A stretch of DNA of 64,000 nt from assembly GCA_038248345.1 (NCBI GenBank), contig JBBRXO010000002.1, positions 6,506 through 70,505 of the forward strand. The letters are read 5' to 3'. Below the pieces are notes generated by a model. That model did no database searches, had not been told where the DNA came from, and saw nothing but the letters and a program-made list of their open reading frames with translations. The stretch comes from Armatimonadota bacterium. GTDB taxonomy: Bacteria; Armatimonadota; Hebobacteria; CAIYQO01. Shown here piece by piece: positions 1,971 through 36,101 of this stretch (positions are counted from its first letter, which is position 1; every line of letters begins with the position of its first letter). The position numbers and the translations under genes are program-made.

Positions 1971-2995
1971 TTATCGACGGACATCTAGACTTGGCGTGGA
2001 ATGCTCTCGCGTTGGGCCGAGATATAACCCAGCCGCTGGCTGTGATTCGCGCCCTTGAAGGTGAAGTACCCGCGCATGGTGCCGGGGTGGCCACCGTATG
2101 CCTCCCTTCCTTGCGTACTGCAGGCGTGCGCGTGGCAATAGCGACAATATTCGCCGCTCCGCACAGCGAGCACCAACCAGACGGATACCACACAGCAGAA
2201 GAAGCCTACGCGCAAGGCAAAGCACAACTTCGCTATTACCAGCAACTGGAAGATGACGGAGAAATACGCATCATCCGCACGCGGCAACAGCTCGCTGAGT
2301 CCATCGCTGGTGAAGGTGCCTCGCCCGGCATCGTCTTGCTCCTAGAGGGCGCGGAACCGCTTCGCACCCCCGCCGACCTGGTGGAGTACTTTGCCGTCGG
2401 TGTGCGCATTGTTGGGCCTGCCTGGCACGCCACCCGCTACGCCGGAGGTACCGGAGAACCGGGGCCACTCACCGTAATGGGAGGGGAATTGCTGCAGGAG
2501 ATGGATCGCCTGGGTGTCGCTTTGGATATCAGCCACCTGGCCGAGGAAGCCTGTACGCAGGCATTTGCGCTTTTCCCTGGCAATATCATCGCTTCCCACT
2601 GCAATGCCCGCCACATTACCGCGGTAGAGCGCAATCTCACCGACGCGCACATGCAGCAAATAGTGGCGCATGGTGGTGTAATCGGCCTCGTACTCTACAA
2701 CCGCTTCATTCGTAATGGTTGGAGCGAAAAAGATGGCAAGGATGCTGTTTCATTGAATCACCTGCTGGAACATGCTCGCTACATCGCGGCGACAATCGGC
2801 GCAAAACATTTGGCGCTCGGGAGTGACATGGACGGCGGGTTGGGGCGTGACGACATCCCATGCGAACTTGATTCCTGCGCTGATTACGCAAAAATTTCCG
2901 CCGCCCTGGCGATGAGCGGCTTCACCGACGAAGAAATTACGGGGATAATGGGCGGCAACTGGGCACGAGTGTTGGATCAACTGCTACCGAGTTAG
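1964..2995 (+). CDS. Membrane dipeptidase (peptidase M19, renal-dipeptidase family)
   Basis: Starts MLIIDGHLDLAWN..., the M19 signature DGHxDL; TAG stop. Confidence 0.7.
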   Translation: MLIIDGHLDLAWNALALGRDITQPLAVIRALEGEVPAHGAGVATVCLPSLRTAGVRVAIATIFAAPHSEHQPDGYHTAEEAYAQGKAQLRYYQQLEDDGEIRIIRTRQQLAESIAGEGASPGIVLLLEGAEPLRTPADLVEYFAVGVRIVGPAWHATRYAGGTGEPGPLTVMGGELLQEMDRLGVALDISHLAEEACTQAFALFPGNIIASHCNARHITAVERNLTDAHMQQIVAHGGVIGLVLYNRFIRNGWSEKDGKDAVSLNHLLEHARYIAATIGAKHLALGSDMDGGLGRDDIPCELDSCADYAKISAALAMSGFTDEEITGIMGGNWARVLDQLLPS

Positions 2996-4438
2996 CAGCG
3001 ATTGCCGTACGATGTCGATGAGCGGTGTAGCGAACAATGCTGCGGCCAATAACAACGCCGCCCCGATAAAGGCGGGGAATATCCCCCACCCGGCGCCATC
3101 CCGCAGGGAAGGCGTAGTCTGGTGTGCCAGCCAGCGCGGTAAAGTGAATCCCACAGCTATTGCCATTAACCCTAATGCGACCACCACTAGCCACGGAGCA
3201 TATAGGATAGGCCAATGGGATTTTAGCGCGATAAACCCCGGTGTTAATGGTACCGCGCAGAGGGACGCCAGTGCCACAATCATACTGACGATAACGACCA
3301 CCCGCTCACTTCGTTCCTTAAGGGTGAGCGCGGGCAATATACCGCCCCCCGCCAGCCACACCAGCATGGCCGATAACCAGGCGAATTGCGTCCAGAGGAT
3401 GCCGCTGATATTGTCTTTCACCCCTGCCCCACCGTGCGCCTGAAAACCTGCCGCCAGTCCCAATAGTAGCATCCCCCCGAGGACGAGCGCGAGCGGGTGC
3501 AGATATGCAAGCGAAATCCGGCGCTTGCGTGCCACTATCGCCAGATACACCTGCCAGATTACTCCACCATAAACGGCGAGCATCCCCCACCCGGCCAGCC
3601 ACACCAGAACCTTATTCAGCAGATATAGTTGATCAATATTCACATTCGGAAGTGCCTGTAACTCGGAACCGGGAAAGGTGAAACAGACCAACCGCACTAG
3701 CGTCAGTACGCCGGTGAGTGCGAGTATCCCCGCCGCCGGTTGCCAGACCATCCGGGCATCTTCACGGCGTAACCATAGCCACCAGGGAAGATATACTGCC
3801 GGGCACAGCATTCCCAGCATCACCATCAGCAAAGCGGCGCTGCTGGCACCTACAGACGAATTCAATAACACCTGCCATAGATTAGTAAGCGGGGCGCCGT
3901 TGGTGATACGCATAAGCCACCAGAGTCCCACCATGCCGAGAACTGCGCAGAGTAACAATACCAGACTGATCTCTACGTCGCGCCAACGCCAGTCAGGGCG
4001 GCAGATATACCACCAGAAGAGATATACCCCTACTGATAACAGCAGCCAGCAACAAAGAGTGAGGGGTTGATTGATACTGAAGAGGAGTAACTCAGCTAGG
4101 AATGTTATAATAAAGATGATGCCAAAGGGGAGAATAGTATTCGGCACCAGACTTCGCCGCGCGGCGGGCACCCAGGAAAGTAACGCCAACGTAAGACCGA
4201 GCAGTGCCGTCCCCCAACAGGAATAGCTATCCGCACGCAGGAGGGGGAATTGCTGTTGCTGCGATCCTATAAATATTGGCTCGATAATGCCAGGGAGCGC
4301 TGCCAGGGATAGCACGGAGATACCCAGGCCTATTGCCACTGCAAACCACGCAGGGGCACGAACTGCCTGCTGGTATTCATGTTCCGGCAAACGACGCAAT
4401 GCCCGGATGGAGAGCGCGTAGATTATCAATGCCCCCAC
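2984..4438 (-). CDS. Polytopic integral membrane protein, function unknown (about 12+ predicted TM helices, W/L-rich)
   Basis: Hydrophobicity pattern of the 484-aa translation; sits at the distal end of the pilus operon. Confidence 0.4.
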   Translation of the reverse strand: MGALIIYALSIRALRRLPEHEYQQAVRAPAWFAVAIGLGISVLSLAALPGIIEPIFIGSQQQQFPLLRADSYSCWGTALLGLTLALLSWVPAARRSLVPNTILPFGIIFIITFLAELLLFSINQPLTLCCWLLLSVGVYLFWWYICRPDWRWRDVEISLVLLLCAVLGMVGLWWLMRITNGAPLTNLWQVLLNSSVGASSAALLMVMLGMLCPAVYLPWWLWLRREDARMVWQPAAGILALTGVLTLVRLVCFTFPGSELQALPNVNIDQLYLLNKVLVWLAGWGMLAVYGGVIWQVYLAIVARKRRISLAYLHPLALVLGGMLLLGLAAGFQAHGGAGVKDNISGILWTQFAWLSAMLVWLAGGGILPALTLKERSERVVVIVSMIVALASLCAVPLTPGFIALKSHWPILYAPWLVVVALGLMAIAVGFTLPRWLAHQTTPSLRDGAGWGIFPAFIGAALLLAAALFATPLIDIVRQSLLTR

Positions 4439-4547
4439 CGCGAGTAGCGGGAAAAGCAGAATTATGATTACTAACAGATCAGCAGTAATGGCAGTATCTC
4501 CGTAAACCTGGGGCTTCTATTGCACTATGGATGACTACTCCCCATGT

Positions 4548-6263
4548 CTACTCGGCATATATGACGCGCAATGCCTCTTCCATGGTGGTGATACCTTCCA
4601 GAATCTTCCCCATGGCATCTTGCTTCAGCGATATCATACCTTCATCAAGGGCTGTCTGCCGGATAACATGTGTGGGAGCCTTCTGCAGCACCAACTCACG
4701 TACATCGTTAGTCATCTCCATAAATTCAAAGATGCCCAAACGACCCTTATACCCAGTGCCGCGGCAGAAACTGCACCCAGCTCCACGATAGAAGGTGGCA
4801 TCACTATCCAGCGAGATACCCAGGCGGTGCAATGCTTCTGGCGATGGCGTGTACGATTCTTTGCAACGTGGACAGATGCCGCGCACCAGTCGTTGTGCCA
4901 GGATACCGATAATGGAAGAAGACGAAAGGAACGGCTCAATGCCCATCTCTGTCAAACGTGCGATAGCCCCTGGAGCGTCATTAGTATGCAAGGTACTGAA
5001 TACCAGGTGACCGGTAAGCGCCGCCTCAATAGCGATGGTAGCTGTCTCCTGGTCACGCATTTCACCGACGAGAATAATATCCGGGTCCTGTCGGAGGAAG
5101 GTGCGTAGTACCGCCGGGAAGGTCATGCCCGCACGAACATTCACCGGGGCCTGCGTTAAACCCGCGAGCTGATACTCTACCGGGTCTTCCACAGTAAGGA
5201 TGTTTTTTTCTGGGCTATTGAGTGAGTTCAAGGTAGAATAGAGTGTTGTCGACTTACCCGAACCCGTCGGACCGGTGACAAGGATAATACCATAGCTGCG
5301 GTGTATAAGCCGATCGTAGATTTCCATCATTGCCGTGGGAATGCCGAGTTTACTTAAACTGACGGTGATACCACTCTTGTCGAGTACGCGCATAACGATC
5401 TTTTCGCCATGCACACTCGGGAGCGAAGATACACGAAAATCGTACTCTTTACGATTCATCTTTACTGAAATACGGCCATCCTGCGGGGCGCGTTTCTCGG
5501 AGATATCCATCTCAGCCATAACTTTAATACGGGATAATAACGCCGCCTGCGCCGATTTAGGTACGGTGGTCTCATCCTGCAGAATGCCGTCGATACGATA
5601 ACGTACCCGGACTTTCGTGGCCTCAGGCTGAATGTGAATATCCGAGGCTTTCTCATTCAACGCCTGCTGGATTATCATATTTACCAATTGGATAATTGGC
5701 GCATCGTCTACCAGTTCACGTAGTTTATCCAGCGAGATGTCATCGTCTTCCTTGGTTCCCTCGTAGGAGATCTCCTCACTATCCACGGTGGCTTCATTAA
5801 CAACACGTCGGATGGTTTCATCCATTCGGTCGCCCGAGGAGAATAGCGATGATATTGCGTTACTCAGATCCTCTTCTATAGTAATGACCGGGTCGATCTC
5901 TAACCCAGTAGTAAGGCGAATCTGGTCGATGCTGAAGATATCCAGTGGGTTCTGCATCGCAACAGTCAGACGATTGCCACGTTTGGCGATAGCCAAGGCG
6001 CGGCAACGCTGAATAAGATGCTTGGGAATAAGATTTACAATGTCCTGATCTAATTCGTCTTCACGGATTTCGACAAAAGGGACATTCCACTGCCTGCCCA
6101 AAGCCCGGATGCGATCCCGCTCGCTGATCAGACTCATTTTAACCAGCAGCTGCCCCAGCGGTTCGCGTGTACCTTTCTGCACTTGCAAGGCACGATCGAG
6201 ATCTTCCTGACTCAATCCGGTAAGCTCCATTATTACTGATCCATATAAACGATGTCCTGCCAA
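4548..6263 (-). CDS. pilB: Type IV pilus / type II secretion assembly ATPase (PilB/GspE family)
   Basis: GspE N-terminal domain (MELTGLSQEDLDRALQVQKG...), Walker A GPTGSGKSTTLY, tetracysteine motif CPRC...CSFC; likely TTG start at 6263 with an AGAGGGG RBS (in-frame ATG at 6230). Confidence 0.8.
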   Translation of the reverse strand: MAGHRLYGSVIMELTGLSQEDLDRALQVQKGTREPLGQLLVKMSLISERDRIRALGRQWNVPFVEIREDELDQDIVNLIPKHLIQRCRALAIAKRGNRLTVAMQNPLDIFSIDQIRLTTGLEIDPVITIEEDLSNAISSLFSSGDRMDETIRRVVNEATVDSEEISYEGTKEDDDISLDKLRELVDDAPIIQLVNMIIQQALNEKASDIHIQPEATKVRVRYRIDGILQDETTVPKSAQAALLSRIKVMAEMDISEKRAPQDGRISVKMNRKEYDFRVSSLPSVHGEKIVMRVLDKSGITVSLSKLGIPTAMMEIYDRLIHRSYGIILVTGPTGSGKSTTLYSTLNSLNSPEKNILTVEDPVEYQLAGLTQAPVNVRAGMTFPAVLRTFLRQDPDIILVGEMRDQETATIAIEAALTGHLVFSTLHTNDAPGAIARLTEMGIEPFLSSSSIIGILAQRLVRGICPRCKESYTPSPEALHRLGISLDSDATFYRGAGCSFCRGTGYKGRLGIFEFMEMTNDVRELVLQKAPTHVIRQTALDEGMISLKQDAMGKILEGITTMEEALRVIYAE

Positions 6264-6366
6264 CGTGAACTACCCCTCTTTATTACGGATACTGCCCCGG
6301 TAACATGATATCATACCGGGGCAACTACCGTGTGTCTTTATTTGTACCGATATCAACTCAATTTAG

Positions 6367-7203
6367 CTACAGATTTGGACTAGCCAAATCCTTGACTACA
6401 TTTACAATCATAGAGTTGATGCTGACATTCCCATCTGGTGTGCGGATTTTCACAGAAACTTTTACGGATATCGCCGGGTAGGTGAATCCACCCGCCGGGT
6501 TCGAAATAGGAGTCAACACCGGTGCTGTCCAACTCGGATTACGAATGTTAGCGTTGTCAAATGCGCCTACATCAGGTGTTGCCGACCACTCAAATGTAGC
6601 ATTCCCGTCGATCCCAATATCAGACATAATTGTTTCGGCAGGTTTACTGGCATCAAAAGGGATGTCCAACATCTTCACTCGCTTGCCCGACTCAACGTTT
6701 GAATACAGGAAAGGGTTCTTCGGTGGAACATAAGAATCCTTGAAGATGTTGTCATAGTCAAAGGCGAAATAGACTGAAGTACGCGGTATTACCCGAATAT
6801 TAAGTTCGGAAGTGGTTTCACCCCCAAGCTTCGTCTTCACATGCAGTTTCAACACAATATTTACCGGCTGTTCATCCTTACCAATATTTGGTGCTTGCCA
6901 TACATTCTGCAGCGAATATGGTGCAGTGACCAGAAATATACCCGTTTTAGCAGGATATAGGGGGTCTGGTATGATTGACCACTCAGCGTTTACTACACCG
7001 TTTTTGGTAGCGTCACTTACGGCAACGTCGGCCTTGATATTCAGGGTGGCACCAGAAGGGAAGTTCTGCAAATCCAGCGCATTATCCAAATTCCAGGTTA
7101 TCACCGGATCGAGATCCGGTGAAGGGCCAAAGCATCCGGTTACCCCTATCCCCAATATGAAGAGAGTCGCCGCTACAGATATAATCTTTTGCCATTGTTT
7201 CAT
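6367..7203 (-). CDS. Lipoprotein of unknown function (signal peptide plus lipobox VTGC)
   Basis: MKQWQKIISVAATLFILGIGVTGCFG; AAGGAGGG RBS; 12 nt downstream of the secretin gene, so it is an operon member. Confidence 0.45.
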   Translation of the reverse strand: MKQWQKIISVAATLFILGIGVTGCFGPSPDLDPVITWNLDNALDLQNFPSGATLNIKADVAVSDATKNGVVNAEWSIIPDPLYPAKTGIFLVTAPYSLQNVWQAPNIGKDEQPVNIVLKLHVKTKLGGETTSELNIRVIPRTSVYFAFDYDNIFKDSYVPPKNPFLYSNVESGKRVKMLDIPFDASKPAETIMSDIGIDGNATFEWSATPDVGAFDNANIRNPSWTAPVLTPISNPAGGFTYPAISVKVSVKIRTPDGNVSINSMIVNVVKDLASPNL

Positions 7204-7215
7204 AATAATCCCTCC

Positions 7216-10200
7216 TTAGTGGGCCGGCGGTGCCAATGCCGCCGGAATAGAGATAATTTGTCCTGTCGCGTTGGCCTTAGCCTGCGCATATTTGATGATA
7301 TTCGGTTGTACCACAATCAACAGCTCCTTACGTTGTGGAGATTTCTTTGTCGAGCTGAATAACCAGTTACCGATTAGCGGAATCTGGCCTAGCACCGGGA
7401 TGCTGGTACGGACAACACTATTAGTGGTCTGGATCATGCCGCCGATTACCAGCATCTCTCCGTCGCGAACCTTGACGGTGGTAGAACAGTTACTGGTGGT
7501 AATCACCGGCAGGTCAACCCCGTTATCTCTGCGGAAGGTCGGGTTATCTGTCACTGATGTGGTGATGTCCAAAGTGATGATACCATCGTTGGTAGTTTGC
7601 GGACGAACCTTCATTACTACACCAGTATCAATTGTTTGGGTGGTAAATACCGGCCCGTTATTCGTCTGATTGGTAACGGTCTGGTAGTAAATCTTACCGC
7701 CAGCCTGGAAGACCGTCTCTTTGCCTGACTGTACGGTAGTAGAAGGTCTACTTTCAATTCTCGCTTTATTCGTGGATGTTAGCGCCGCCAGACTAGTGCT
7801 GAAGGCGAGGGGGTCGCGGATTATACGCCCAAGCACTAACGGATTGCCACTCTGCGTTTCTCCGGTACCGATCGTGACCCCACCAGGCGTAACAACGCCG
7901 CCATTCACACCACCCCAGGTGATGCCCAGGTTCTTCACTTGACCTTCGTCAACACTGATAATCGTTGCCGTGATTTGAATCTGCGAAGGCTCAGTATCTG
8001 TCTCAAGTATCTTGGCTTCCGCTAATTTAACGATATCATCCGGACCCGATAGTTGCAAAATAACGTTATCGCTTGCGCCGGCAGTGGCACCGCCAAGTGA
8101 TGCAACTCCAGTACCTGAGTTCGTTGGAGTAGGCGTAGTGCCCATCGTATCAGGGCCAACCGATACCATCAGACCATCTTTGCCATACAGGTCGAGCAAC
8201 ATCGTTTTGGTACTATCAACTTTAACGAAGCGCAGGATCACTTGTCTGATCACTTTTCTCGGCCCATTGTCCAGACTGTTGAGCGTAGCCAAGGCCATCT
8301 CTACTGTCTCTTTGGGCCCCTGTAACTCAAACTTGCCAATCGGCTCTACAATGCTCAATGTCCCATCTGCCTTACGTACCACTGGCATCCCGAGTGAGCT
8401 GTTGCCCGCGGCTAGGCTGAAGATACTCGGCGGCAAGGTGATGATCGTCAACCCCTTAGCCTCATACTGCCCCAGCAGGTAGTTAATCGCCGTCGAGGCC
8501 GGGATGGAATCAACCTTGGTGACTACCTTGGCCATTGGGATATCGACATCCATAGTATTCAGTGATGCCAGCGCACTGTCGATGACATTCTTTGGGCCAT
8601 TCAAAATGATATCGTTGCTGGTCCAATTAGTACTCGTACCGCCAGGCATAGCTGCCCAGTTCGGATTAGGGAGGTAGGATACCTTCAAGCCAGCATCCTT
8701 ATAGCTGTTCTCCAGGTACTGCTTCACCTGTGCCGGAATAAGTGACTTGATATGGTATCTGCTCTCCACAATCGTTGCGGCTGTCGTATTGCCCGCGCCG
8801 GTAGTGGGGAGATCAATGGAGGCAATCAGACCTTTTGCTTCTGCAATGCTGCGCGCCGGACCGACAAGCATCAAGTGTGCATTGACTTCGGTTGCAATAA
8901 TATCCTTATAGGCAATTTTCAACGCCTCAATGGCTGCAGCAGGCGAAATATTTGTCAGTGTCAACACTGCATTGGTACTGGCATCTACATTTACACCCGG
9001 TGCGATATCAATTTTCGCCAGCAAAGTCTTAAGGGATTCGAGATTGTCTTTTGCTCCGACGATGTATATTCGATTGGTTCCCATCCCCATCACCTTCAGG
9101 TCTTTGTAGGTATTGGTGATGGCGGTAGTAGCCTCGGCAATAGTCAACTGCTGCAGTGTGTAGGTAAGATTACCTTCTACTTCAGGATTCCTGTCAATTA
9201 AGTCGAGGAAGTTTTTTGCGCTCTTTAAATTTAACACCGTGCCGATGAGCACGATTTGATTACCAGTCTCACCCACGGGAGCGCTTTTCACATCTTTATA
9301 GGGGAGCTCCAGCGCTTTGGCTACTTCTGCAGGACGCATATACTTCAATGTTACTAACATGTTGGTGATCGGTTCAGGTCCCTGTACCTTTTCAGTGTCA
9401 ATGAAATTAAGGAACTTCACCGCTTCCGCCAGACGTGGCGCGGTGCCCGCCAATACCAGCCGATCTACCGGCAGAAAAACGGTTTTAATGTCCTTATATA
9501 CGGTGCCTAATGCCGCGATGGCGTCCTCCTTGGATAACGCCTGCAGTCGATAGGTCACTGTTTCATCAGGTTGCGGCAAATTAACTGCCGCCGAGGAGGC
9601 GTCAATTAACTCCAGCAAGGATTTCGCCGCTTGAAGGCGCTCGGTAGAACCTAGCAGGAGTACCGTACCATTTGAGAAACCTTTCGCACGAACATCCCGC
9701 GCCGAGAGGCTTATCGCGGTTTCAGCATCAGCCGTCGTCATATTATGGAGCGTTACTACCTGTTGTGTCTCCAGCTGAGGATTTGTCCCGTTTGTACTTG
9801 GACTGTTTAGAACATTCAGGAAGGAGACGGCGGCCTTCAGCCGTGATGGCGCCCCCATGAGCACAATCCGACTATCCTTCATGGACTTTACCGTGACATC
9901 TTTGAAAACCACACCCAGTGCTGCTTCTGCATCCGCAGCAGTAACGTTATCCAGTTTCACTACCTGATATATCTCGGAAGCGCTTGTCCCGGAAATTGAG
10001 GCTGCGGTAAAATCCAACTGATCGATGAAAGATTTAGCGGCCTTGATTCGTGAAATTGAACCCACCAGCAGTACCCGGCCATCGACCGTCTTAACCTGCA
10101 CGTCCTTATACATTACCCCCAGCGCAGCCTCGACATCAGCCGGACTGATCTTTTGTAATGTCAAAATTGCGATCTGTTGATTTTGCACACCGTATTGGTC

Positions 10201-10539
10201 ATCGAGCGCCTTGGCGGTATTCACCACGTAGGTGCCATTGACACTTCGGTATGAATACTCGGTCATGCCGGTGATGACAGACAACGCTTCATCTACTGTC
10301 ATGTCGCTCAGGCGTAAGCTGATTGGGCCTTTGACCGTCGGTGAGATTACGATGTTTGTCCCCGTCGCGGTAGCCAGAGCCTGCAGTACTACCGGCAATT
10401 CAGCATTGACGAAATTCAATGACTGAATCTTCGTTTCTGCGTACGCCGAGCTTACTGCTACTGTCAATGCCAGAATAATTGCGACCTTAGCCGCCCGGCT
10501 CAATCGATAGAGATTTGCGATTATTCGTGCTCCTATCAT
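7216..10539 (-). CDS. pilQ: Type IV pilus secretin (PilQ/GspD family) with an N0-like domain followed by about 9-10 tandem 60-70-aa secretin-N-type repeats and a C-terminal secretin domain
   Basis: Signal peptide; recurring motif (A/I)ALG.VYKDV.V.....R(V/I)(L/V)L.G....L..AK.(F/L)(L/I)..(L/I)D about seven times; C-terminal ...SIPVLGQIPLIGNWLFSSTKKSPQRKELLIVVQPNII secretin signature; ATGA overlap with upstream pilP. Confidence 0.8.
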   Translation of the reverse strand: MIGARIIANLYRLSRAAKVAIILALTVAVSSAYAETKIQSLNFVNAELPVVLQALATATGTNIVISPTVKGPISLRLSDMTVDEALSVITGMTEYSYRSVNGTYVVNTAKALDDQYGVQNQQIAILTLQKISPADVEAALGVMYKDVQVKTVDGRVLLVGSISRIKAAKSFIDQLDFTAASISGTSASEIYQVVKLDNVTAADAEAALGVVFKDVTVKSMKDSRIVLMGAPSRLKAAVSFLNVLNSPSTNGTNPQLETQQVVTLHNMTTADAETAISLSARDVRAKGFSNGTVLLLGSTERLQAAKSLLELIDASSAAVNLPQPDETVTYRLQALSKEDAIAALGTVYKDIKTVFLPVDRLVLAGTAPRLAEAVKFLNFIDTEKVQGPEPITNMLVTLKYMRPAEVAKALELPYKDVKSAPVGETGNQIVLIGTVLNLKSAKNFLDLIDRNPEVEGNLTYTLQQLTIAEATTAITNTYKDLKVMGMGTNRIYIVGAKDNLESLKTLLAKIDIAPGVNVDASTNAVLTLTNISPAAAIEALKIAYKDIIATEVNAHLMLVGPARSIAEAKGLIASIDLPTTGAGNTTAATIVESRYHIKSLIPAQVKQYLENSYKDAGLKVSYLPNPNWAAMPGGTSTNWTSNDIILNGPKNVIDSALASLNTMDVDIPMAKVVTKVDSIPASTAINYLLGQYEAKGLTIITLPPSIFSLAAGNSSLGMPVVRKADGTLSIVEPIGKFELQGPKETVEMALATLNSLDNGPRKVIRQVILRFVKVDSTKTMLLDLYGKDGLMVSVGPDTMGTTPTPTNSGTGVASLGGATAGASDNVILQLSGPDDIVKLAEAKILETDTEPSQIQITATIISVDEGQVKNLGITWGGVNGGVVTPGGVTIGTGETQSGNPLVLGRIIRDPLAFSTSLAALTSTNKARIESRPSTTVQSGKETVFQAGGKIYYQTVTNQTNNGPVFTTQTIDTGVVMKVRPQTTNDGIITLDITTSVTDNPTFRRDNGVDLPVITTSNCSTTVKVRDGEMLVIGGMIQTTNSVVRTSIPVLGQIPLIGNWLFSSTKKSPQRKELLIVVQPNIIKYAQAKANATGQIISIPAALAPPAH

Positions 10540-11279
10540 TTGCTACCTCCTGCTATGATTTGCTTGTTACGTTTCCCATCCGTTACAGACATACTACTAT
10601 CTGTTATTCTAGTCACGCTCCACCCGGAACCGGGGATCGCCTGACCCTTAACCACTTGATAATACTGACCATTAAACATGCCGAATGCCATCGGGCGCGC
10701 CTCTGTCATAATGATTCCGCGGAGTCCAAAATCGGGCACCGGCGGCTCAACATCAGCTGCGAGTAACAGGTTGTACGCTTCTAACACTTCCATCGAAGGC
10801 CCTTCTAACGTGAGCATACCGTTTTTAATGGTAACAGTTACACCTGATTTTTCTACAACTGCTTTGGCTGTCTCGCCGTCAATCCACAACAGCTTGTGCG
10901 GTTCACTCTTCATTTTAATATCATCAGACGAATAGTCCGTCCTACCATCGGGCAATTTCCCTATTCCTGTTTTTGAGGTACCAGTTGTACCTTCCGAAAC
11001 CGGTGGTTCAACTGTCACAACATCGTCTTTTTTCTTCTCACCGACAAATGGATCACGAACTATCTCACCGACGAGATTATCTACACTCCTGTTGCGCGCC
11101 CAGTCTAAAGGGGCGGACGCTGGTAGAGCATCAACAGTTGTCGTAGATGTTGTAGCCGGCTTGGTTGCGTTAGAAGGTGCCGGGGTTGTCGGTTTGATGG
11201 TGAAATAAACTGCAACCAGCAATCCTACCAGCATTACTCCTAATACAATATATTGAATTGTCTGTTTATTCATGCTCAT
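10536..11279 (-). CDS. PilP-like pilus assembly protein (assigned mainly by position between pilO and pilQ; N-terminal TM anchor, low-complexity linker, C-terminal beta-rich domain)
   Basis: Gene order pilM-N-O-[this]-Q with ATGA overlaps on both sides. Confidence 0.45.
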   Translation of the reverse strand: MSMNKQTIQYIVLGVMLVGLLVAVYFTIKPTTPAPSNATKPATTSTTTVDALPASAPLDWARNRSVDNLVGEIVRDPFVGEKKKDDVVTVEPPVSEGTTGTSKTGIGKLPDGRTDYSSDDIKMKSEPHKLLWIDGETAKAVVEKSGVTVTIKNGMLTLEGPSMEVLEAYNLLLAADVEPPVPDFGLRGIIMTEARPMAFGMFNGQYYQVVKGQAIPGSGWSVTRITDSSMSVTDGKRNKQIIAGGSK

Positions 11280-11986
11280 TTCGCCTCCCCTCCCTTCAAC
11301 TTGGCCGCCTTAACTACATCAGATTCTTTCTGATTCTGCGAGGGAATAATAATCGCATACGTTTCGATCGATGTAGTTATCTGCATCTTGCCATCTTTAA
11401 TCCCGGAAGGAGTCACCGCAATCGACTTGACGTAAACTAGCTTCTGGAAATTTCGGAGACCATCAAGAAACTTCATCAAACTGGTGTAAGTTCCGTTAAT
11501 TGTAAGGCTTATCTTCATCACCTGCGTAGCATTAGCCGGAGCCTTCGGGGCTGCGGCGGGTGTCGCCGCGGCTGCATCCGTAGGTGCGGGTGGCGGCGGA
11601 GGTGCCTGGCTAGCGAATGGCCCCTTTGTAGGATCAAACGGTTTGATATCACCTGGGTTGATTACAATCAGGTCGTTCCCCGTATTAAAAGCGACTTTCT
11701 GAATCTGCTCCAAGTAGGTCGGGAGGTACTTAACGTCTGTTAGATCCTTGTCAAGCTCACCCTGTAATAATATGTTCCGCTCCAATTCCGCTTTCAATTC
11801 ACCTTTTTTGTCTAACTTCTCTTTTAACTCCTTGATCTGCTTCCTGGTGTCCGCATTGGCGGTCACCTTCTTGGTTACCTCAATCATCTGCATTTGATAA
11901 CCGACTACTCCAAGGGCCATAATAACCAGGCCTATGGCGATTATGATGACAAGTGCGATAGTGAAACGAGAATTACTCTTTTGCAT
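11276..11986 (-). CDS. pilO: PilO-like type IV pilus assembly protein (TM anchor, coiled coil, periplasmic domain, Pro/Ala-rich linker)
   Basis: Architecture and position in the pilMNOPQ operon. Confidence 0.55.
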   Translation of the reverse strand: MQKSNSRFTIALVIIIAIGLVIMALGVVGYQMQMIEVTKKVTANADTRKQIKELKEKLDKKGELKAELERNILLQGELDKDLTDVKYLPTYLEQIQKVAFNTGNDLIVINPGDIKPFDPTKGPFASQAPPPPPAPTDAAAATPAAAPKAPANATQVMKISLTINGTYTSLMKFLDGLRNFQKLVYVKSIAVTPSGIKDGKMQITTSIETYAIIIPSQNQKESDVVKAAKLKGGEAK

Positions 11987-12570
11987 TATAAGTCTCCTCC
12001 TTTCATATCTGCAATTGGAACCGTTACTTCAAAATGTACAGATTTTACTGTGTTGCCCGGGCCAGGCTCAATACTAATGGTACCGACTTTGGTCTTTTCG
12101 TTAGCGGCCCAGTCTGTCTTCGACAAGCTGACCATGTACTCTCCCAACGTTTTCTCATCTGGGGCAGAGCCAGCCATCTTGATATCGACACCTTTATCAG
12201 TGCTGTTAACAGTGAAACTTGTAATCGTTACACCTGGAAAAGCAAGGCTGATCTTACTGACATCCGCCAGAATGATCATCCACACTGCTTCGCTTACTCG
12301 CACTTGATTAATCAGCATAATGTGCGGTTTTATCTTATCAATTTCGCTCTGGATTGCATCGTATTCCTTCTTGGATTCCATCCTTGAATCAAGATCAGCT
12401 TTTTGGTATACCTGGTCTCTGCTCTATGTCGCCAAGGATATCCCCGCAGCCACATTGAGACCTATCATCGCAACGAGCACCACTACTACGAACATAGATG
12501 ACCATCTGATGATGTTCATCTCGCGCAATCGTTTGGCGCGGCGCTCGGCGATCAAGTTAATATTGATCAT
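11986..12570 (-). CDS. pilN: PilN-like pilus assembly protein whose reading frame contains one in-frame TAG stop (codon 49, at 12426..12424) between the TM anchor (MININLIAERRAKRLREMNIIRWSSMFVVVVLVAMIGL...) and the periplasmic domain (track ORF 11986..12381)
   Basis: My own translation of the minus strand from the ATG at 12570..12568 (ATGA overlap with the pilM stop); same frame as the 11986..12381 ORF; classic PilN N-terminus. Confidence 0.55.
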
Positions 12571-13715
12571 CGGCGTGGCTCCTTTTCAAATGCGAGCATC
12601 GGCTCCCGCAATGCGAGTCCCAAAGCCGTAGAAAGTAGCGGTAGCTGGGATTCCAGACCCTCAGCGCCTTCTGGCAAGAGTAGTGCGCCAGAATGGATTA
12701 CATTCAATACCTGCACCGGCACTCCGAGTTGTCCGGCAAGGTATTCGCACAGGCCATTCATTTTTGCAGTGCCGCCTGTAAGAATAACTCGCGAGACACC
12801 TTGGATGGCTGCTGAATCTGGCGTCCGCTGGTAATCATAGAAAGCGAAGGATCGGCGAATCTCGCGAACAAGCTCTTCCAACTCTGGCTCCAGCGCCCGG
12901 CTGGCTTCCTGCCCCAGTGGTGTTAGCATCGCCCGGTCGACTTCATCTGTTACCACCTTAACTTCGTTTTCCTTAACTTCTTCCGCTTGCGATGAACTAA
13001 TGCCCATTGCAGAAGCGATTGCCTCCGTTAGTGCATTGCCCGCAGATGCTACTGATCGTGTCAGTTTGAAGACTCCATCCGAGACGATAGTGATGGAAGT
13101 ATAGGTCGCGCCAATATCAACTAATGCCACGGTCTCCTGTACTTGCGACCCCTGCATTAATTCCACTGCGCTTCTCATCAAGGCAAACGGTTCCAGTTCG
13201 ATGGCAAGTGGTTCTAATCCAGCCTGTTCCAGCGCCTGGACACGACGATCCACCAGATCTCGCGGGGTGGCTGCCAACATGACGTCCATTTGCGGTGTAC
13301 CATCAGCTGCGCTGGTGCCCAGAATCTGCAACTCCACCAGGCTATCTTCTACCGGGAAGGTTATGTAATTACGCGCTTCCCAGTAAATTGATTTGCGTAA
13401 CTGGTTCTCTGGCATAGATGGTAGCAATACCTGACGTATTACCACCGAAGGCCCAGCCACCGCGGCAATTGCCAACGGAGTCTGAATCCCTAAAGTCTGC
13501 AACAGTGTATGAATTGCTTCAGCTACTGCCAACTGATTATCAACGACACCCAGCTTGATAGCGTCGGGCGGCGTTGGCGTGCTTCCGGCATGTGTCAGCA
13601 GGTAACCATTGCGTGTATATACGACTTCCACTACCTTAATTGAGTGGCTGCCGATATCAATTCCCACGGTCTCACTGGTGCCGGAGAATCTGCTCAACAG
13701 ATTCATATCTGGCAA
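12567..13715 (-). CDS. pilM: Type IV pilus assembly ATPase-fold protein PilM (actin/FtsA-like)
   Basis: MPDMNLLSRFSGTSETVGIDIGSHSIKVVEV... and overall PilM-like length and order. Confidence 0.8.
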   Translation of the reverse strand: MPDMNLLSRFSGTSETVGIDIGSHSIKVVEVVYTRNGYLLTHAGSTPTPPDAIKLGVVDNQLAVAEAIHTLLQTLGIQTPLAIAAVAGPSVVIRQVLLPSMPENQLRKSIYWEARNYITFPVEDSLVELQILGTSAADGTPQMDVMLAATPRDLVDRRVQALEQAGLEPLAIELEPFALMRSAVELMQGSQVQETVALVDIGATYTSITIVSDGVFKLTRSVASAGNALTEAIASAMGISSSQAEEVKENEVKVVTDEVDRAMLTPLGQEASRALEPELEELVREIRRSFAFYDYQRTPDSAAIQGVSRVILTGGTAKMNGLCEYLAGQLGVPVQVLNVIHSGALLLPEGAEGLESQLPLLSTALGLALREPMLAFEKEPRR

Positions 13716-13785
13716 CTCCTCTCCCGATGCGAATACTATGCATCAATCCTGACTCTAGAATATCAACTACTGACATACTACCAGG

Positions 13786-16506
13786 TTATTTCTTACTAAT
13801 CAACGCGTATGTACCACTCGTGGTATTGTAGGTAGCTTCCATATTCAGTGTCTTCGCCAGGAAGCTTAACGGAACCATTGTACGGTTTCCAACAATATGT
13901 GCCGGTCGTTTCAGGTCTATAATATCGCTATTCACCTTGGCTTGTGCTGATTCAATCTGGACATCAACAAATGACCCATTTGCCCAGGCATTCACTGCCT
14001 GATTCTTCTCTAACCAGACTACTACGCCACCCTTGGCTTCAATCAGCATACGCATCGGCACCATCGCTACGTCATTCACTACATACGGTGATGGGTAATA
14101 CGCGCCGCTGGCAATTACCGGCTTGTTATCTAAGTATATTCTTCCATTCGCCAACGGAACGATAATCTCCTTTTCCGGGACAAATTGAATTCCTGGGTTA
14201 AGCTGTTGTAACTCTACCGGGGAACTATGATATGCTTCTGCGATGGAATTGATCGAATCACCTTGTCTGATAATATAGCTGGACTGTGCGCTGATATTTG
14301 ACCCTATCGGGGTTACATCGATATTTGTTGCAACTGGCACACTAGCAATAATCGTTGTAAAGTAACTCGCTGCCTCGGTATCGTTGGCTTGATATGAGCG
14401 CGGTAGCTCACTGTAGCTGCTGATGCCAGGATAGTCAATGCTCATGTTAGCCGCACTGACTGATGGCAATGATGCTAATGACAACCAGGCAGGTCGGCTG
14501 AACGATGTGCCAGCTTTGGCATAGCCAGCAACTTCATTATGTCCCGGCTGGCCAGGGGTGATCTCATGGGTGCGGGTGGTAGAAGTGTAAGCGGCGTAAT
14601 TGTTGACTTCACCATTCCCTGTCTGGCGGCGGGGCGCGGCAAACATCCCTTGCACCGGGGCAATGATTGTTCTTTCCGCTACTCCTGGAGTATTGGGGGA
14701 TGCCGGTACACCGAAACTGGTTTCGCTCTTAATATTCCCAGCACCTACCGTTGAATATGCTTGCGGCGTCTTCGGCACATTCGGATTAATAGTCCGGGCA
14801 TTTGCAACATCAGAAATCACCGCATTGTGTGCAGGCATTTTACTTCCCGGCGTTACCGCCAGGATAGTCATCGTCGAATTGTATTGAGGGGTTCCTACAT
14901 TGGTTGATGCAGTGGCTACAGCTGGCGACATTGGAACAGCGTAGTTACTGCCTGAATAATTATTCCCGACTTTTATCGAGGCCATCAGTATCGGTAAGAC
15001 TTTTTCGTCTGGTGATATCGGCCTACTATTAACCGCGCCCGCCACTATTGCAACATTTCCGGGTAATCCGGCTACCGGCTGCTCGGTGAGATTCACCATC
15101 AAAGCATTATTTTGTGGGCTGCCCGAGGTGAGCAATTGGTGCGCTGGTGTGTCATTCAGGTTGATGTTCGGCATAGTTGTGGCCATTACCATTCCGAGTG
15201 GATTAGTCGAACCAATAGTTGTTCCACCGTTCGCAATGGCGGCATTCAGTACCGGTGTTGTAGCCAATGCCGGACTTACTTTGTTAACGATCTCCTTCGG
15301 CAATGTAGTATAGGTCGGAAATTCGCGGCCTAACATTGGATTCATGGCATCGACCGGAGCGCCGACCGTCAGCTGTGCTGGCGAATATGCATTGTAACCG
15401 ACCGCCGGGACAATGATCGGATTGCGCATCGGTGTATATGACGTATAGGTATTCAATGGAGCCAGAGAATTTCCCTTATATGCCAATGCCATCGGGGTAG
15501 TTAACCCATATGCGCGCAATGGTGATGAGCTGGCAAATACGTTGTTCAGTGACTTATTACTTACAGGTACCAGCGCGATGAGATCCTGCAAAATGCCGGG
15601 GGTATACATCTTCGGGCGTGCTGACAGGCCATAAGCCAGCATGGGGACGCCGTAATCTGCGCGGGAGGCGAAGGGCATGTCATTTACGCTACCGAGCATT
15701 GTCGGATGGGATAACCCCAGATAATCATTTAGATTGATCGATTTCGTCGAAGGGTACAGGTTGTTTAAGAACGTCTCAACTCTCTGTGATGGATCGTGCC
15801 CTACTCTTACTGCGACCACCGGGCTGACTGCACGGTTATCAGATATATCGAGAGCTGAGGCGGATAGAACATATTCGCCGGGAGTTAGTTTCGCTTTAAT
15901 TGGATCCCAGGAGATCGTGTATGGGTATTCACTGGTGATACCGTAGGGGACATTGTTGACATACACCGTGATATATTTGATGCCGGCATCACCTGATGCT
16001 TCTACTTTAATATTTACCGGGCCGACGATCTCTGCCCCATTTGTCGGGCTGATGATCCGCACAGTAGGAGGAGTGACCTTCTTGGGAGCGATGGTATTCT
16101 GCAGATAGAAACTCACCTGACGCTCCGCATAACGACCGCGGGTATCGGACAGGCGAATGTTAAATACGTGCGTACCAGGCTCCAACATCGGAGTATAGAC
16201 ACTTAGATCACCGTCGATGCGGAAGGAATAAGACTGCCCCGGCTGGGCTTTGGCTAGATTAACATCACCCTTTATGAAGCGACGCCCATCGATGGTAGTC
16301 TCGTAATGATTAATTTGTGCGTCAATGGGATTGACGAACTGCACGGCCACCGGAAAGGCCGAAGTGGAGATGGGATTATTGGGCAACGGCAGTAATAACT
16401 GCATTTGCATGCCACCATCTTGTGCCTGCACCGGAACGACCACGGCTAATAACGTGAGCGCGAGGGCAACTACAAACAACCCGAACTGAGATCGACTTCC
16501 CATCAT
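13786..16506 (-). CDS. Large secreted envelope protein: signal peptide, N-terminal Ig-like domains, about 400-aa S/T/A/P/N-rich low-complexity linker, LysM-like motif (YIIRQGDSINSIAEAY...), C-terminal copper-amine-oxidase-N-terminal-like (stalk) domain
   Basis: Domain motifs read from the translation; only about 70 bp upstream of pilM on the same strand; candidate sigma70 promoter (TTGACT-N17-TAATTT on the minus strand) about 100 nt upstream of its AGGAGG RBS. Confidence 0.5.
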   Translation of the reverse strand: MMGSRSQFGLFVVALALTLLAVVVPVQAQDGGMQMQLLLPLPNNPISTSAFPVAVQFVNPIDAQINHYETTIDGRRFIKGDVNLAKAQPGQSYSFRIDGDLSVYTPMLEPGTHVFNIRLSDTRGRYAERQVSFYLQNTIAPKKVTPPTVRIISPTNGAEIVGPVNIKVEASGDAGIKYITVYVNNVPYGITSEYPYTISWDPIKAKLTPGEYVLSASALDISDNRAVSPVVAVRVGHDPSQRVETFLNNLYPSTKSINLNDYLGLSHPTMLGSVNDMPFASRADYGVPMLAYGLSARPKMYTPGILQDLIALVPVSNKSLNNVFASSSPLRAYGLTTPMALAYKGNSLAPLNTYTSYTPMRNPIIVPAVGYNAYSPAQLTVGAPVDAMNPMLGREFPTYTTLPKEIVNKVSPALATTPVLNAAIANGGTTIGSTNPLGMVMATTMPNINLNDTPAHQLLTSGSPQNNALMVNLTEQPVAGLPGNVAIVAGAVNSRPISPDEKVLPILMASIKVGNNYSGSNYAVPMSPAVATASTNVGTPQYNSTMTILAVTPGSKMPAHNAVISDVANARTINPNVPKTPQAYSTVGAGNIKSETSFGVPASPNTPGVAERTIIAPVQGMFAAPRRQTGNGEVNNYAAYTSTTRTHEITPGQPGHNEVAGYAKAGTSFSRPAWLSLASLPSVSAANMSIDYPGISSYSELPRSYQANDTEAASYFTTIIASVPVATNIDVTPIGSNISAQSSYIIRQGDSINSIAEAYHSSPVELQQLNPGIQFVPEKEIIVPLANGRIYLDNKPVIASGAYYPSPYVVNDVAMVPMRMLIEAKGGVVVWLEKNQAVNAWANGSFVDVQIESAQAKVNSDIIDLKRPAHIVGNRTMVPLSFLAKTLNMEATYNTTSGTYALISKK

Positions 16507-16676
16507 AATTCCTCCTGGCGGCGCGGCTTACACCTGCGATCTATGACGTCTATTTTCCGACTCATAGCGGTTTGCCGATCCACTGGTTGTACACTATTGT
16601 TTAAATTATCATAAGAACGGGTCTAAGTCAATATCTTTTTCAATGTTTGAGAAAATAGACAAGTCTTCATTTTTTG

Positions 16677-16785
16677 TTGGGGCACATGGCATGTGCCCTC
16701 TATACGGGATATGGGATTATATGACCAATTGTAAGGTATGATTACGACATGGGCACAAGCCTTTTGCCCCTATAATCGGGTTGTT
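16677..16785 (+). repeat. Double-hairpin intergenic repeat, copy A (GGGGCACATGG/CATGTGCCC ... GGGCACAAGCC/TTTTGCCCC)
   Basis: About 90% identical to 43467..43575 and reverse-complement-similar to 19865..19958. Confidence 0.7.
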
Positions 16786-34224: not shown

Positions 34225-35157
34225 ATGATAAAATTACAAGTTGCAGTAATAATGGGCGGAGTATCCAGCGAACGGGCGATTTCACTGCGTAGCGGGGCAA
34301 ATGCCGCCGCCGCGTTAGATCGGGAAAAATTTGACGTTACCATGGTGGATTTTACCGGTGATGTTGCACAGATTACCGCGTTGGCCGGGGTGGTCGACGT
34401 GGCATTGCTGATGTTGCATGGCCCCGGAGGGGAAGACGGGCGTATCCAGGGGCTGCTCGATTTATTACATATCCCCTACACCGGCAGTGGTGTACTCGGG
34501 AGCGCATTGGCTATGCATAAGGGTGTAGCAAAGGCGATCTACCGCGATGCAGGGATACCGACACCCCGCGGTATAGTGGCAGAAGCGGGTGACCGATGTC
34601 TATCCGAGGCGGTCTTTAGTAATATCGGCTACCCCTGTGTGGTGAAACCCGCCAACGAAGGATCAACTATCGGCATCTCACTGGTGCAGGATGTCGAAGA
34701 GCTGGAGGAGGCGCTGGAGCGAGCTTTCCAGTTCGACAGCGAGCTGGTGATCGAGGAGTTCGTGCGCGGCATGGAGATCAGCGTACCGGTGCTGGGCACT
34801 GAGGTATTGCGTGCATTACCAGCAGTAGAGATCATCCCGCAAAGCGGGTGGTATGATTACGAGATGAAATACACTGCCGGAGCCACCGAGGAGATATGTC
34901 CGGCACGGCTGACGGAAGAGCAGGCAGCACGCGCCGCGGAATTGGCGCTGAAAGCACACCGCGCCTTATGCCTGAAGGGTATCTCACGGACTGACATGAT
35001 CGTCACCGATTATGACCTCATTGTGCTGGAGACTAACACCTTGCCGGGGATGACCGACACCAGCTTGGTGCCGCTTTGTGCGCGTACTGTGGGTATCAGT
35101 TTCAGTGAATTACTAGAAATACTTATCGCCGATGCGCGGGGAATACATAACGGATAA
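34225..35157 (+). CDS. ddl: D-alanine--D-alanine ligase
   Basis: MIKLQVAVIMGGVSSERAISLRSG... ATP-grasp motifs; TATAAT -10 at about 34183. Confidence 0.85.
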   Translation: MIKLQVAVIMGGVSSERAISLRSGANAAAALDREKFDVTMVDFTGDVAQITALAGVVDVALLMLHGPGGEDGRIQGLLDLLHIPYTGSGVLGSALAMHKGVAKAIYRDAGIPTPRGIVAEAGDRCLSEAVFSNIGYPCVVKPANEGSTIGISLVQDVEELEEALERAFQFDSELVIEEFVRGMEISVPVLGTEVLRALPAVEIIPQSGWYDYEMKYTAGATEEICPARLTEEQAARAAELALKAHRALCLKGISRTDMIVTDYDLIVLETNTLPGMTDTSLVPLCARTVGISFSELLEILIADARGIHNG

Positions 35158-36101
35158 TGCGACACAATAACGGGTATAAGCAAAATACGCCATCGGGTAA
35201 TACTGTAGCTCGTGAGCTAGGGGATCGTGGTATGTCTACCGCTGGTGAGGAAAATAATAATATACCGGGGGAATACCTGGAATCACAACAGGTAACCGCT
35301 AACATGCGCTGGCGTCGCCAGCGGTTGGCGTTGTATCGCCGCGTGTGGGCAGTGGCATGGACATTGATACTCGCCTTCCTGGTGGAGGCATGGATCGCGG
35401 CGTGGTTTTCGCCGCGCAATTACATCTATCGATTGGAGACACGTAATACTGACTCCATGACGGAAGAAGAAGTTATCCGTCTCGCGGCTGTGAAACCGAA
35501 GACAAACTACTTCCGTGTTCCCTTGCAGGAAATCGCTACCCGGATCAAGTCGCAAGATCCGCGCGTGGATAACGTCATCGTTGAGCGTGGAGCCATGGGG
35601 ACGCTGATATTGACGGTGAACGAGCGCAAAGCGGTATGCCGTCTGGGTACCAGCGAACCGCCGATGTACCTGGATGAAAAGGGCTACCTATTCACGCGAC
35701 CAATACCAACGCCAAACCTGGTGCCAATTGTCACCGCCATTGAAGCGCCCACGGAGAAAAAAATGGGAGAAAAGCTGACAGAGGCCTACGTTGTGCCGGT
35801 GTTGAAAGCGGTCGTGGCATTGCCCGCCAAAACTAACAAAGGCTTCCTTATTGAAGCTGCCAGCTTGAAGGTAGACGAGAAGAGTGGCGCCACCTATGAA
35901 TTAAGCAATGGCATCATCATCGAATATGGTACCCTCACCTACCCGGAACAGAAGGCGGAGGTAATTAAGAACTTGATCGACAATGCGATAGAAGCAGGCA
36001 ATGCACCGGAGAATATATTATCCTTGAATGTCACCGGCGTGGATAACAAAATGTTAAGAGGGTCGTACACCCCGCGGACCCCGACTGGGGGGACAAATTG
36101 A
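35157..36101 (+). CDS. ftsQ: Cell division protein FtsQ/DivIB-like (TM anchor plus POTRA-like domain)
   Basis: Position after ddl, single TM (VWAVAWTLILAFLV), POTRA-like region; exact start uncertain. Confidence 0.5.
   Translation: MRHNNGYKQNTPSGNTVARELGDRGMSTAGEENNNIPGEYLESQQVTANMRWRRQRLALYRRVWAVAWTLILAFLVEAWIAAWFSPRNYIYRLETRNTDSMTEEEVIRLAAVKPKTNYFRVPLQEIATRIKSQDPRVDNVIVERGAMGTLILTVNERKAVCRLGTSEPPMYLDEKGYLFTRPIPTPNLVPIVTAIEAPTEKKMGEKLTEAYVVPVLKAVVALPAKTNKGFLIEAASLKVDEKSGATYELSNGIIIEYGTLTYPEQKAEVIKNLIDNAIEAGNAPENILSLNVTGVDNKMLRGSYTPRTPTGGTN

Follow-up and report, generated by a model that had tools for sequence, protein, structure and literature searches.

A 64,000-nucleotide (nt) stretch of contig JBBRXO010000002.1 from an Armatimonadota bacterium (assembly GCA_038248345.1; hereafter the window) carries on its minus strand, from 16506 to 2984, nine consecutive genes that run from the gene for a 906-residue envelope protein through to that for a polytopic membrane protein. 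We propose that this cluster, a nine-gene block conserved in Armatimonadota, encodes the module by which a type IVa-like pilus system is assembled across the envelope, and we put the probability of this reading at roughly 60%. At its center is a secretin of 1107 residues, which is composed of a signal peptide, an N0 domain, exactly ten N-domains of beta-alpha-beta-beta-alpha topology and a canonical secretin barrel. This is the largest fused N-domain array of its family in the searches that we made, about twice that of the characterized record-holders, and the number of N-domains is a trait of the lineage: ten here, and four to six in sister Armatimonadota.

The two ends of the secretin are recognized by family profiles. 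The barrel domain matches PF00263 over residues 919-1083 (E 9.4e-38; 129.9 bits against a cut-off of 27.5) as well as the sequences of PilQ and GspD in the PDB (E 1e-22 to 1e-11). The N0 domain scores above the cut-off of the GspD-type family PF21305 (33.6 bits; cut-off 27) and just under that of STN (27.2 bits; cut-off 28.4), and it matches N0 of Neisseria meningitidis PilQ (4ar0; E 1e-4). Both an N0-like domain and a canonical C-terminal secretin domain had been assigned in the initial annotation of this DNA, and both assignments are thus upheld.

For the region in between, Secretin_N gives 56.3 bits with the entire protein (cut-off 28.2). When this region was divided into ten units for pairwise and single-domain tests, N1, N6 and N7 each matched Pfam Secretin_N with E of 1e-3 to 6e-5 and N2, N3 and N5 with E of about 0.1; N4, N8, N9 and N10 gave no match in the single-domain Pfam tests, so that their identity rests on the family hidden Markov model (HMM), on predicted topology and on orthology. 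Pairwise Smith-Waterman scores among N1-N7 range from 53 to 134, as against 25.5 +/- 5.2 (maximum 42) for shuffled sequences, and the repeats thus exceed chance, while N8-N10 form a second group with mutual local alignment scores of 48-74. Exactly ten domains, none with E above 2e-11, are detected by an HMM iterated on the secretin family. From the AlphaFold model, whose confidence is low (overall predicted local distance difference test score, pLDDT, of 55), we used only the secondary structure and local fold matches: the former consists of ten beta-alpha-beta-beta-alpha units in a row after N0, and the latter, obtained with Foldseek, are to GspD, PulD, XcpQ N0-N1-N2, InvG and PilQ structures. 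All ten domains keep the full core and share 70% identity between orthologues, and the linkers that join them are 8-15 residues long and predicted with low confidence. The “about ten” secretin-N repeats originally noted are therefore exactly ten plus N0, and the possibility raised alongside them, namely that the repeats would turn out not to be secretin N-domains, is contradicted by the profile searches.

Relatives of this secretin are few. A search of the N-array (residues 119-852) against 1.84 billion representative proteins returned only 27 matches, and no relative turned up among the GTDB species genomes when these were scanned with the secretin alignment, hence no species-level representative in that collection. 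A second scan, with RadA of the window, found 97% identity to the RadA of an Armatimonadota metagenome-assembled genome. NCBI labels the relatives of the secretin, like those of the ninth gene, as Armatimonadota. According to the family HMM, ten N-domains are present in all four members of the clade (the window and loci L001, L002 and L004; 70-93% identity). Sister secretins (P0004, P0015-P0028; 700-900 residues, 30-41% identity) carry four to six, mostly four, with five in P0015 and P0020 and six in P0025/P0041; these have the same nine-gene module, N0, three long N-domains proximal to the outer membrane and barrel, but only one to three N-domains of the “short” type versus seven here. In a domain tree, the three barrel-proximal domains of the short relatives have N8, N9 and N10 as their respective orthologues, and N1-N7 all fall into the “short” class, of which those relatives have one to three copies. 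The ten-domain state thus arose by expansion of the “short” class, with the three domains nearest the outer membrane remaining orthologous.

Two further arrays deserve mention. On a 42%-GC contig of another lineage (L015:4451-10046; Logan SRR32456895), pilM-N-O is followed by the gene for a barrel-less protein of 1321 residues, made up of a signal peptide, N0 and 17 N-domains, and then by a separate gene for a 547-residue protein with its own signal peptide, N0, three N-domains and the secretin domain. Given this locus, an N-array architecture is not unique in principle. P0036 (NCBI MGC8971321.1, partial) is an AMIN + N0 protein in which blocks of N-domains are repeated near-identically, as if a three-domain unit had very recently been duplicated in tandem.

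The module around the secretin is kept in the same gene order in L001, L002 and L004, in the distant L013 and L014 and in the locus that encodes P0066, and L003 carries it from the secretin gene onward. A Big_7/LysM/Cu_amine_oxidN1 protein (851-919 residues) is followed by pilM, pilN, pilO, a PilP-like gene (198-262 residues), the secretin gene, a variable small gene (130-492 residues), a pilB with an MshEN domain and a membrane protein gene (462-515 residues). The outer flanking genes differ between clades, whereas the synteny of the nine genes is preserved. This changes the picture of a seven-gene operon that was drawn at first: the eight open reading frames (ORFs) listed then are all in place and all on the minus strand (Table 1), but the conserved module counts nine genes, continues beyond pilB and, in this genome, contains an interrupted pilN. 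The description of its genes as overlapping or nearly so applies from pilM to the lipoprotein gene, where the junctions are -4, -1, -4, -4 and +12 nt, but not to the gaps between the 906-residue protein gene and pilM (79 nt) and between the lipoprotein gene and pilB (136 nt); the gap between pilB and the ninth gene is 22 nt. A single transcript across the cluster is plausible, as are several shorter ones, and the only strong terminator-like hairpin is the one 3' of the ninth gene.

The sole candidate sigma70 promoter had been placed upstream of the 906-residue protein gene. Promoter-like sites were, however, also found before pilM (13854-13825) and pilB (6338-6310) by a consensus scan, whose total of 32 is modestly above that of shuffled sequences (20.4 +/- 4.8) and which missed the upstream site because the spacer for GATAAT is 15 nt. 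The upstream block is near-invariant in L001 and L002 while the remaining spacer has diverged, which supports a real regulatory element. Also upstream of the 906-residue protein gene, at about 16670-16730 on the minus strand, the window carries 57 nt that are inserted with respect to L001 and L002 and contain a perfect palindrome, GGGCACATG/CATGTGCCC.

Table 1. Features of the pilus gene cluster and domains of its secretin, listed in the direction of transcription (window coordinates; aa, amino acid residues)
Feature	Position	Strand	Remarks
Promoter-like/regulatory block upstream of the 906-aa protein gene	16585..16650	-	TTGACT (16631-16626), then N15-GATAAT or N17-TAATTT with TG; by eye
906-aa secreted envelope protein gene	13786..16506	-	Pfam; composition and per-segment conservation; kept position before pilM
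pilM	12567..13715	-	Probable ATG start 13706; PilM_2, TIGR01175; 98% identical to L001
pilN	11986..12570	-	One frame interrupted by TAG 12424-12426 (codon 49)
pilO	11276..11986	-	PF04350, 27.9 bits (cut-off 22); conserved position
PilP-like gene, 247 aa	10536..11279	-	N-terminal membrane anchor, linker, N-domain-like module (aa 125-179), PilP-type C-terminal beta domain
Secretin gene, 1107 aa	7216..10539	-	Secretin, GspD-type N0 and Secretin_N in Pfam
Secretin N0 (aa 35-118)	10186..10437	-	PF21305; signal peptide aa 1-34 ahead
Secretin N1-N7 (aa 119-589)	8773..10185	-	Seven “short” N-domains, 65-70 aa each
Secretin N8-N10 (aa 590-852)	7984..8772	-	Three “long” N-domains with beta2-beta3 inserts, 79-93 aa
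C-terminal secretin barrel domain and stop codon (aa 853-1107)	7216..7983	-	PF00263
Lipoprotein gene, 278 aa	6367..7203	-	Lipobox ...GVTGC; no family match
PilB/GspE-family assembly ATPase gene	4548..6230	-	T2SSE and MshEN; start 6230 backed by homologues
Ninth gene, polytopic membrane protein	2984..4525	-	MrpA/MrpD/NuoL/M/N antiporter-like fold
Terminator-like GC-rich hairpin and T-run	2900..2920	-	64 nt 3' of the ninth gene

The protein that opens the module begins with a signal peptide and an Ig-like N-terminal region, in which Big_7 is matched at residues 147-216 (E 7e-14), and ends with a LysM domain (PF01476, residues 744-782; marginal at 21.7 bits against 20.9) and Cu_amine_oxidN1 (residues 805-900; E 4e-20). 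These three Pfam matches agree with the Ig/LysM/Cu-amine-oxidase-N composition first attributed to it; Pfam and NCBIfam hold no further family match, and LysM is also recorded in the orthologues from L002, L014 and the P0066 locus. Its ends are conserved (residues 1-240 and 740-906). The intervening stretch of about 500 residues, rich in P, S, T, N, A and G and poor in charge, evolves fast, with 10-24% identity to distant orthologues as compared to 34-54% in the C-terminal LysM/stalk domains. A homologue lies directly before pilM in all eight other loci examined, which include L001, L002, L013, L014, L018 (whose contig holds just the first 51 codons of the gene after the homologue), L019 and the P0066 locus, and it does so even in the distant L013, L014 and P0066 loci with their different flanking genes. 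No homologue that could be placed lies away from pilus genes, which settles in the negative the concern that this protein might be found elsewhere without them. The 278-residue lipoprotein encoded after the secretin, for which neither Pfam nor NCBIfam has a match, is likewise fast-evolving (63.5% identity to L001, versus 93% for the secretin and 99% for PilB), and its position in distant relatives is occupied by genes of unrelated size. Inspection by eye suggests that it consists of two Ig/PKD-like repeats.

The ninth gene belongs to a highly conserved family of 21 sequences from Armatimonadota only. None of its 21 members matches Pfam, PF00361 included, and the family has no match in NCBIfam or among PDB sequences; hhalign of the family against Escherichia coli NuoN and NuoM gave probabilities below 1% and aligned just a short motif in transmembrane helix 12 (TM12). 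A model built from the family alignment (pLDDT 85; predicted template modeling score, pTM, 0.89) nevertheless has the antiporter-like fold of about 14 transmembrane helices, and its Foldseek matches are exclusively to the antiporter-like subunits MrpA/MrpD and NuoL/M/N (E 3e-9; TM-score 0.6-0.68). The 21-sequence alignment contains no invariant or near-invariant lysine, so that the canonical proton-path lysines of TM7, TM8 and TM12 are missing, and E156 is a tentative candidate for the glutamate of TM5; in one weak profile alignment, on the TM12 motif “LSLAGIPxxxGF”, a leucine of the ninth-gene protein stands opposite NuoN K395. Unlike those subunits, it is encoded by a solitary gene without Mrp or Nuo partner genes, which follows pilB here and in seven other loci. 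It is probably an uncharacterized partner of the pilus machine. We ruled out that it is PilC, as T2SSF is not matched and the fold resembles that of antiporters and not that of GspF. A pilin glycosylation enzyme (Wzy_C or GT-C) was ruled out by the fold searches.

The 906-residue and antiporter-like proteins could alternatively be conserved neighbors only, with envelope and membrane functions unrelated to the pilus. This would explain why one antiporter-like homologue, P0060, has a fucosidase and a giant surface protein as its neighbors and lacks pilus genes in its vicinity, why a large spacer precedes pilM in L013 and L014, and why the 906-residue protein gene has its own conserved promoter-like element. 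It is harder to reconcile with the fact that both genes hold their positions in loci with entirely different outer flanks, that every 906-residue protein homologue found precedes pilM, and that the antiporter-like gene follows pilB so closely, with the only strong terminator-like hairpin coming after it. We thus regard mere neighborhood as somewhat unlikely.

PilM, PilN, PilO and PilP form the inner-membrane alignment complex in characterized systems. PilM of the window is matched by PF11104 (PilM_2; E 7e-54) and by TIGR01175 (232.9 against a cut-off of 133). The PilP-like protein, whose gene is where pilP is expected, has a membrane anchor in place of a lipobox and scores 21.9 bits on TIGR03021 (E 2.8e-4), below the cut-off of 34.65 and over residues 200-231 only. 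Between its anchor and its PilP-type beta domain, residues 125-179 form a secretin-N-like (ring-building) module (family HMM i-E 2.6e-6). The ATPase, 99.3% identical to that of L001, matches PF00437 (T2SSE; E 1e-135) and MshEN (E 2e-17). It is of the PilB/GspE/MshE family, with subtype scores that stay below the cut-offs (TIGR02538, PilB, 610.9 against 675.65; GspE, 599 against 630). Its N-terminus bears the MshEN cyclic di-GMP-binding motif (NF053729, 38.1 against a cut-off of 38), which suggests control of pilus assembly by cyclic di-GMP.

As had been noted from the start, pilin, pilC and pilT genes are absent from the window. Pfam searches of most ORFs of at least 150 residues outside the cluster and a prepilin-motif regular expression run over six frames of the 64 kilobases detected no pilin motif, no pilC, no pilT and no prepilin peptidase. 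The genes for pilin, PilC, prepilin peptidase and PilT may lie elsewhere in the genome. Relatives have large prepilin-type genes (GFTLIELLVV; N_methyl + SBP_bac_10) close to the module (L004:10222-11754 and L001:22770-23318), in L004 directly after the antiporter-like gene; the window has none such.

The module could conceivably be devoted to a type II-like form of secretion or to DNA uptake by a competence pseudopilus instead of an extended surface pilus, the long channel guiding the substrate or DNA. In support of this, the secretin scores equally on the GspD and PilQ models and its N0 is of the GspD-type Pfam family, the ATPase separates GspE from PilB by little (599 versus 611 bits), pilT is absent from the window, and Thermus PilQ is bifunctional in DNA uptake (PMC5745081). 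On the other hand, PilM exceeds the curated cut-offs of both Pfam and NCBIfam and PilO that of Pfam, the order pilM-N-O-P-Q is a hallmark of type IVa pili, and the GspC, GspF, GspL and GspM families were not detected. A dedicated secretion or uptake role is thus unlikely in our view.

If the cluster is a pilus assembly module, some 13-15 secretin protomers would stack their N-domains into about eleven rings, to which the N-domain-like module of the PilP-like protein may contribute one further ring. The closest precedent is PilQ of Thermus thermophilus, which has 757 residues and rings N0-N5, is 350 Å long and was itself singled out for its “unusual number” of rings (PMC5745081), such that the comparison with Thermus made at the outset was apt. 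Scaling from this structure (six rings plus barrel, about 44 Å per ring), eleven rings plus barrel would measure roughly 50-57 nm. The periplasmic tube, put at roughly 45-55 nm, would be about twice as long as the Thermus or Deinococcus secretins, and the pilus would cross an unusually wide envelope with inner-membrane parts of normal size. Indeed, the inner-membrane components are no longer in the ten-domain clade (PilN 189-194, PilO 226-243 and PilP-like 198-262 residues), so that any additional width of the envelope would have to be spanned by the secretin alone. A very long conduit in a wide envelope is plausible and, in our analysis, the best reading of the ten N-domains.

Thermus PilQ resembles the window secretin in being a secretin of type IV pili that is encoded in a pilM-N-O-(W/P)-Q context and has a long array of ring domains under the barrel, in lacking AMIN domains and in coming from a Terrabacteria diderm. 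It differs in having five N-domains after N0 instead of ten and 757 residues instead of 1107, the N0 of the window secretin being of the ordinary GspD/STN type, and the PDB search revealed no sequence relationship beyond the barrel domain. The accessory genes found here, namely those for the 906-residue LysM protein, the lipoprotein and the antiporter-like protein, also set the cluster apart from Thermus. The Deinococcus radiodurans complex of DR_0774 (8CO1; 740 residues, flange plus N0-N3, about 350 Å long with a barrel about 85 Å tall; PMC10828601), which was Foldseek match number 2, is again a long secretin that spans a thick envelope and is joined by a belt and a cap as separate subunits, but is extended by added subunits and one extra domain and not by tandem N-domain expansion.

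The 906-residue protein, with its Ig-like head, flexible spacer and LysM plus Cu_amine_oxidN1 tail, would most likely tie the conduit to peptidoglycan. Its role can be likened to that of TsaP (Myxococcus, Neisseria) and FimV (Pseudomonas), since the window secretin has no AMIN domain. Both are periplasmic peptidoglycan-binding LysM proteins tied genetically or physically to PilQ. The analogy is functional only: there is no similarity to the 906-residue protein beyond LysM, and TsaP and FimV lack its Big_7 region, its low-complexity spacer of about 500 residues and its Cu_amine_oxidN1 “stalk” domain. Coiled-coil connectors of the OmpM/SlpA type, which link outer membrane and peptidoglycan, have been reported in Armatimonadetes (PMC9388160). 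The lipoprotein encoded after the secretin might serve as pilotin, belt or cap, and the antiporter-like protein would be a further, uncharacterized inner-membrane partner.

The extra N-domains can perceivably be explained in a different way, as a flexible tether, as an array that interacts with peptidoglycan or an S-layer, or as a set of partner-binding sites, in which case the envelope need not be unusually wide. The equal size of the inner-membrane partners in the four- and ten-domain clades is consistent with this, as are the short linkers of low predicted confidence, and the 17-domain array of L015, being a separate barrel-less protein, implies that N-arrays can be used outside the barrel protein. 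However, in every secretin structure that has been solved, N-domains with this fold form rings stacked beneath the barrel (PMC5745081; Foldseek matches), and the preservation of the full core in all ten domains, at 70% identity between orthologues, likewise speaks for a ring-forming array. We therefore find it improbable that the extra domains serve as a mere tether or binding array.

One gene of the cluster, pilN, had been listed as an ordinary gene but is not intact. Its codon 49, directly after the transmembrane helix, is an in-frame TAG, with GAG in L001 and GAA in L002. The frame 3' of the TAG is still open and conserved, its C-terminal part giving a weak Pfam PilN match (E 0.048), and pilN is uninterrupted (189-194 residues) in L001, L002, L004, L013, L014, L019 and the P0066 locus. 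An intact PilN that combines the PilM-binding peptide, the transmembrane helix and the periplasmic domain was thus not found in this genome. Such a stop would leave the periplasmic domain disconnected from the membrane anchor and the PilM-binding peptide and is expected to inactivate assembly. In the ninth gene, codon 3 is TAG as well (4517-4519), with AAG in L001, and the longest uninterrupted ORF, of 484 residues from GTG 4438, falls about 28 N-terminal residues short; since the annotated N-termini of many homologues are short, this stop may have no effect. L001 and the window have 15 genes in common, in which no in-frame stops but these two occur, and both lie in the pilus module. Stop-codon reassignment was ruled out as the cause of the pilN TAG: TAG ends 14 of the 39 confident genes, pilB and the ninth gene included, and as an ordinary stop in the window it makes recoding unlikely. 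Alternatively, the pilN TAG may be an assembly error or a minority allele in the metagenome assembly.

A decaying remnant of a pilus system that is being lost, with no current function, would account for both TAG codons and for their confinement to this module in a window in which TAG is an ordinary stop, but there are no frameshifts or further stops, the other genes are all uninterrupted, with 64-99% identity to L001, pilN remains open and conserved beyond its stop, the stop in the ninth gene may be harmless and a single-base consensus error or minority allele is possible in a metagenome assembly, all of which makes decay quite doubtful.

Several points weigh against the cluster being a pilus assembly module of the kind that we propose. 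None of pilA, pilC, pilD and pilT lies in the window, and the production of a pilus is thus unproven. The NCBIfam models for GspD and PilQ give the secretin 146.8 and 145.4 bits, respectively, both below cut-off. The AlphaFold model of the secretin, with its pLDDT of 55, is that of a monomer and uninformative on ring stacking and oligomerization. One relative, L016, has the antiporter-like gene away from pilus genes, and the gap between the 906-residue protein gene and pilM widens to 365-441 nt in the distant L013 and L014, which means that co-transcription of the two is not general. Finally, pilN has a premature stop, and the machine is probably inactive in this genome if the base call is right.

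Elsewhere in the window, ddl is grouped with an ftsQ-like POTRA gene and a DUF881 gene at 34225-36871 on the plus strand, in what is an ordinary division/cell-wall cluster. Rfam and tRNA scans of the window gave no match.

Taken one step further, the combined features could define an Armatimonadota pilus machine of undescribed type, in which the length of the conduit is set by the copy number of one class of N-domains (4-10 rings) and the conduit is held with a peptidoglycan-anchored spacer protein of some 900 residues. To this would be added an orphan, lysine-less integral inner-membrane component of MrpD/NuoN fold, perhaps ion-conducting or platform-associated, that is part of no known type IV filament system. 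We offer this extended model tentatively and consider it unlikely in its entirety.

Secretin length is thought to match envelope width, and the six-ring PilQ of Thermus has been cited as exceptional. The occurrence of secretins with four, five, six and ten N-domains in one otherwise constant module provides a direct handle on how trans-envelope machines scale, and it leads to the prediction that the periplasm of this uncultured clade would be about double the width of its Thermus or Deinococcus counterpart. The LysM/“stalk” protein and the antiporter-fold protein are candidates for new parts of the type IV pilus machine in Terrabacteria diderms. Finally, the 17-domain barrel-less array of L015 suggests that extending the conduit by an array of N-domains may be a general and overlooked strategy.

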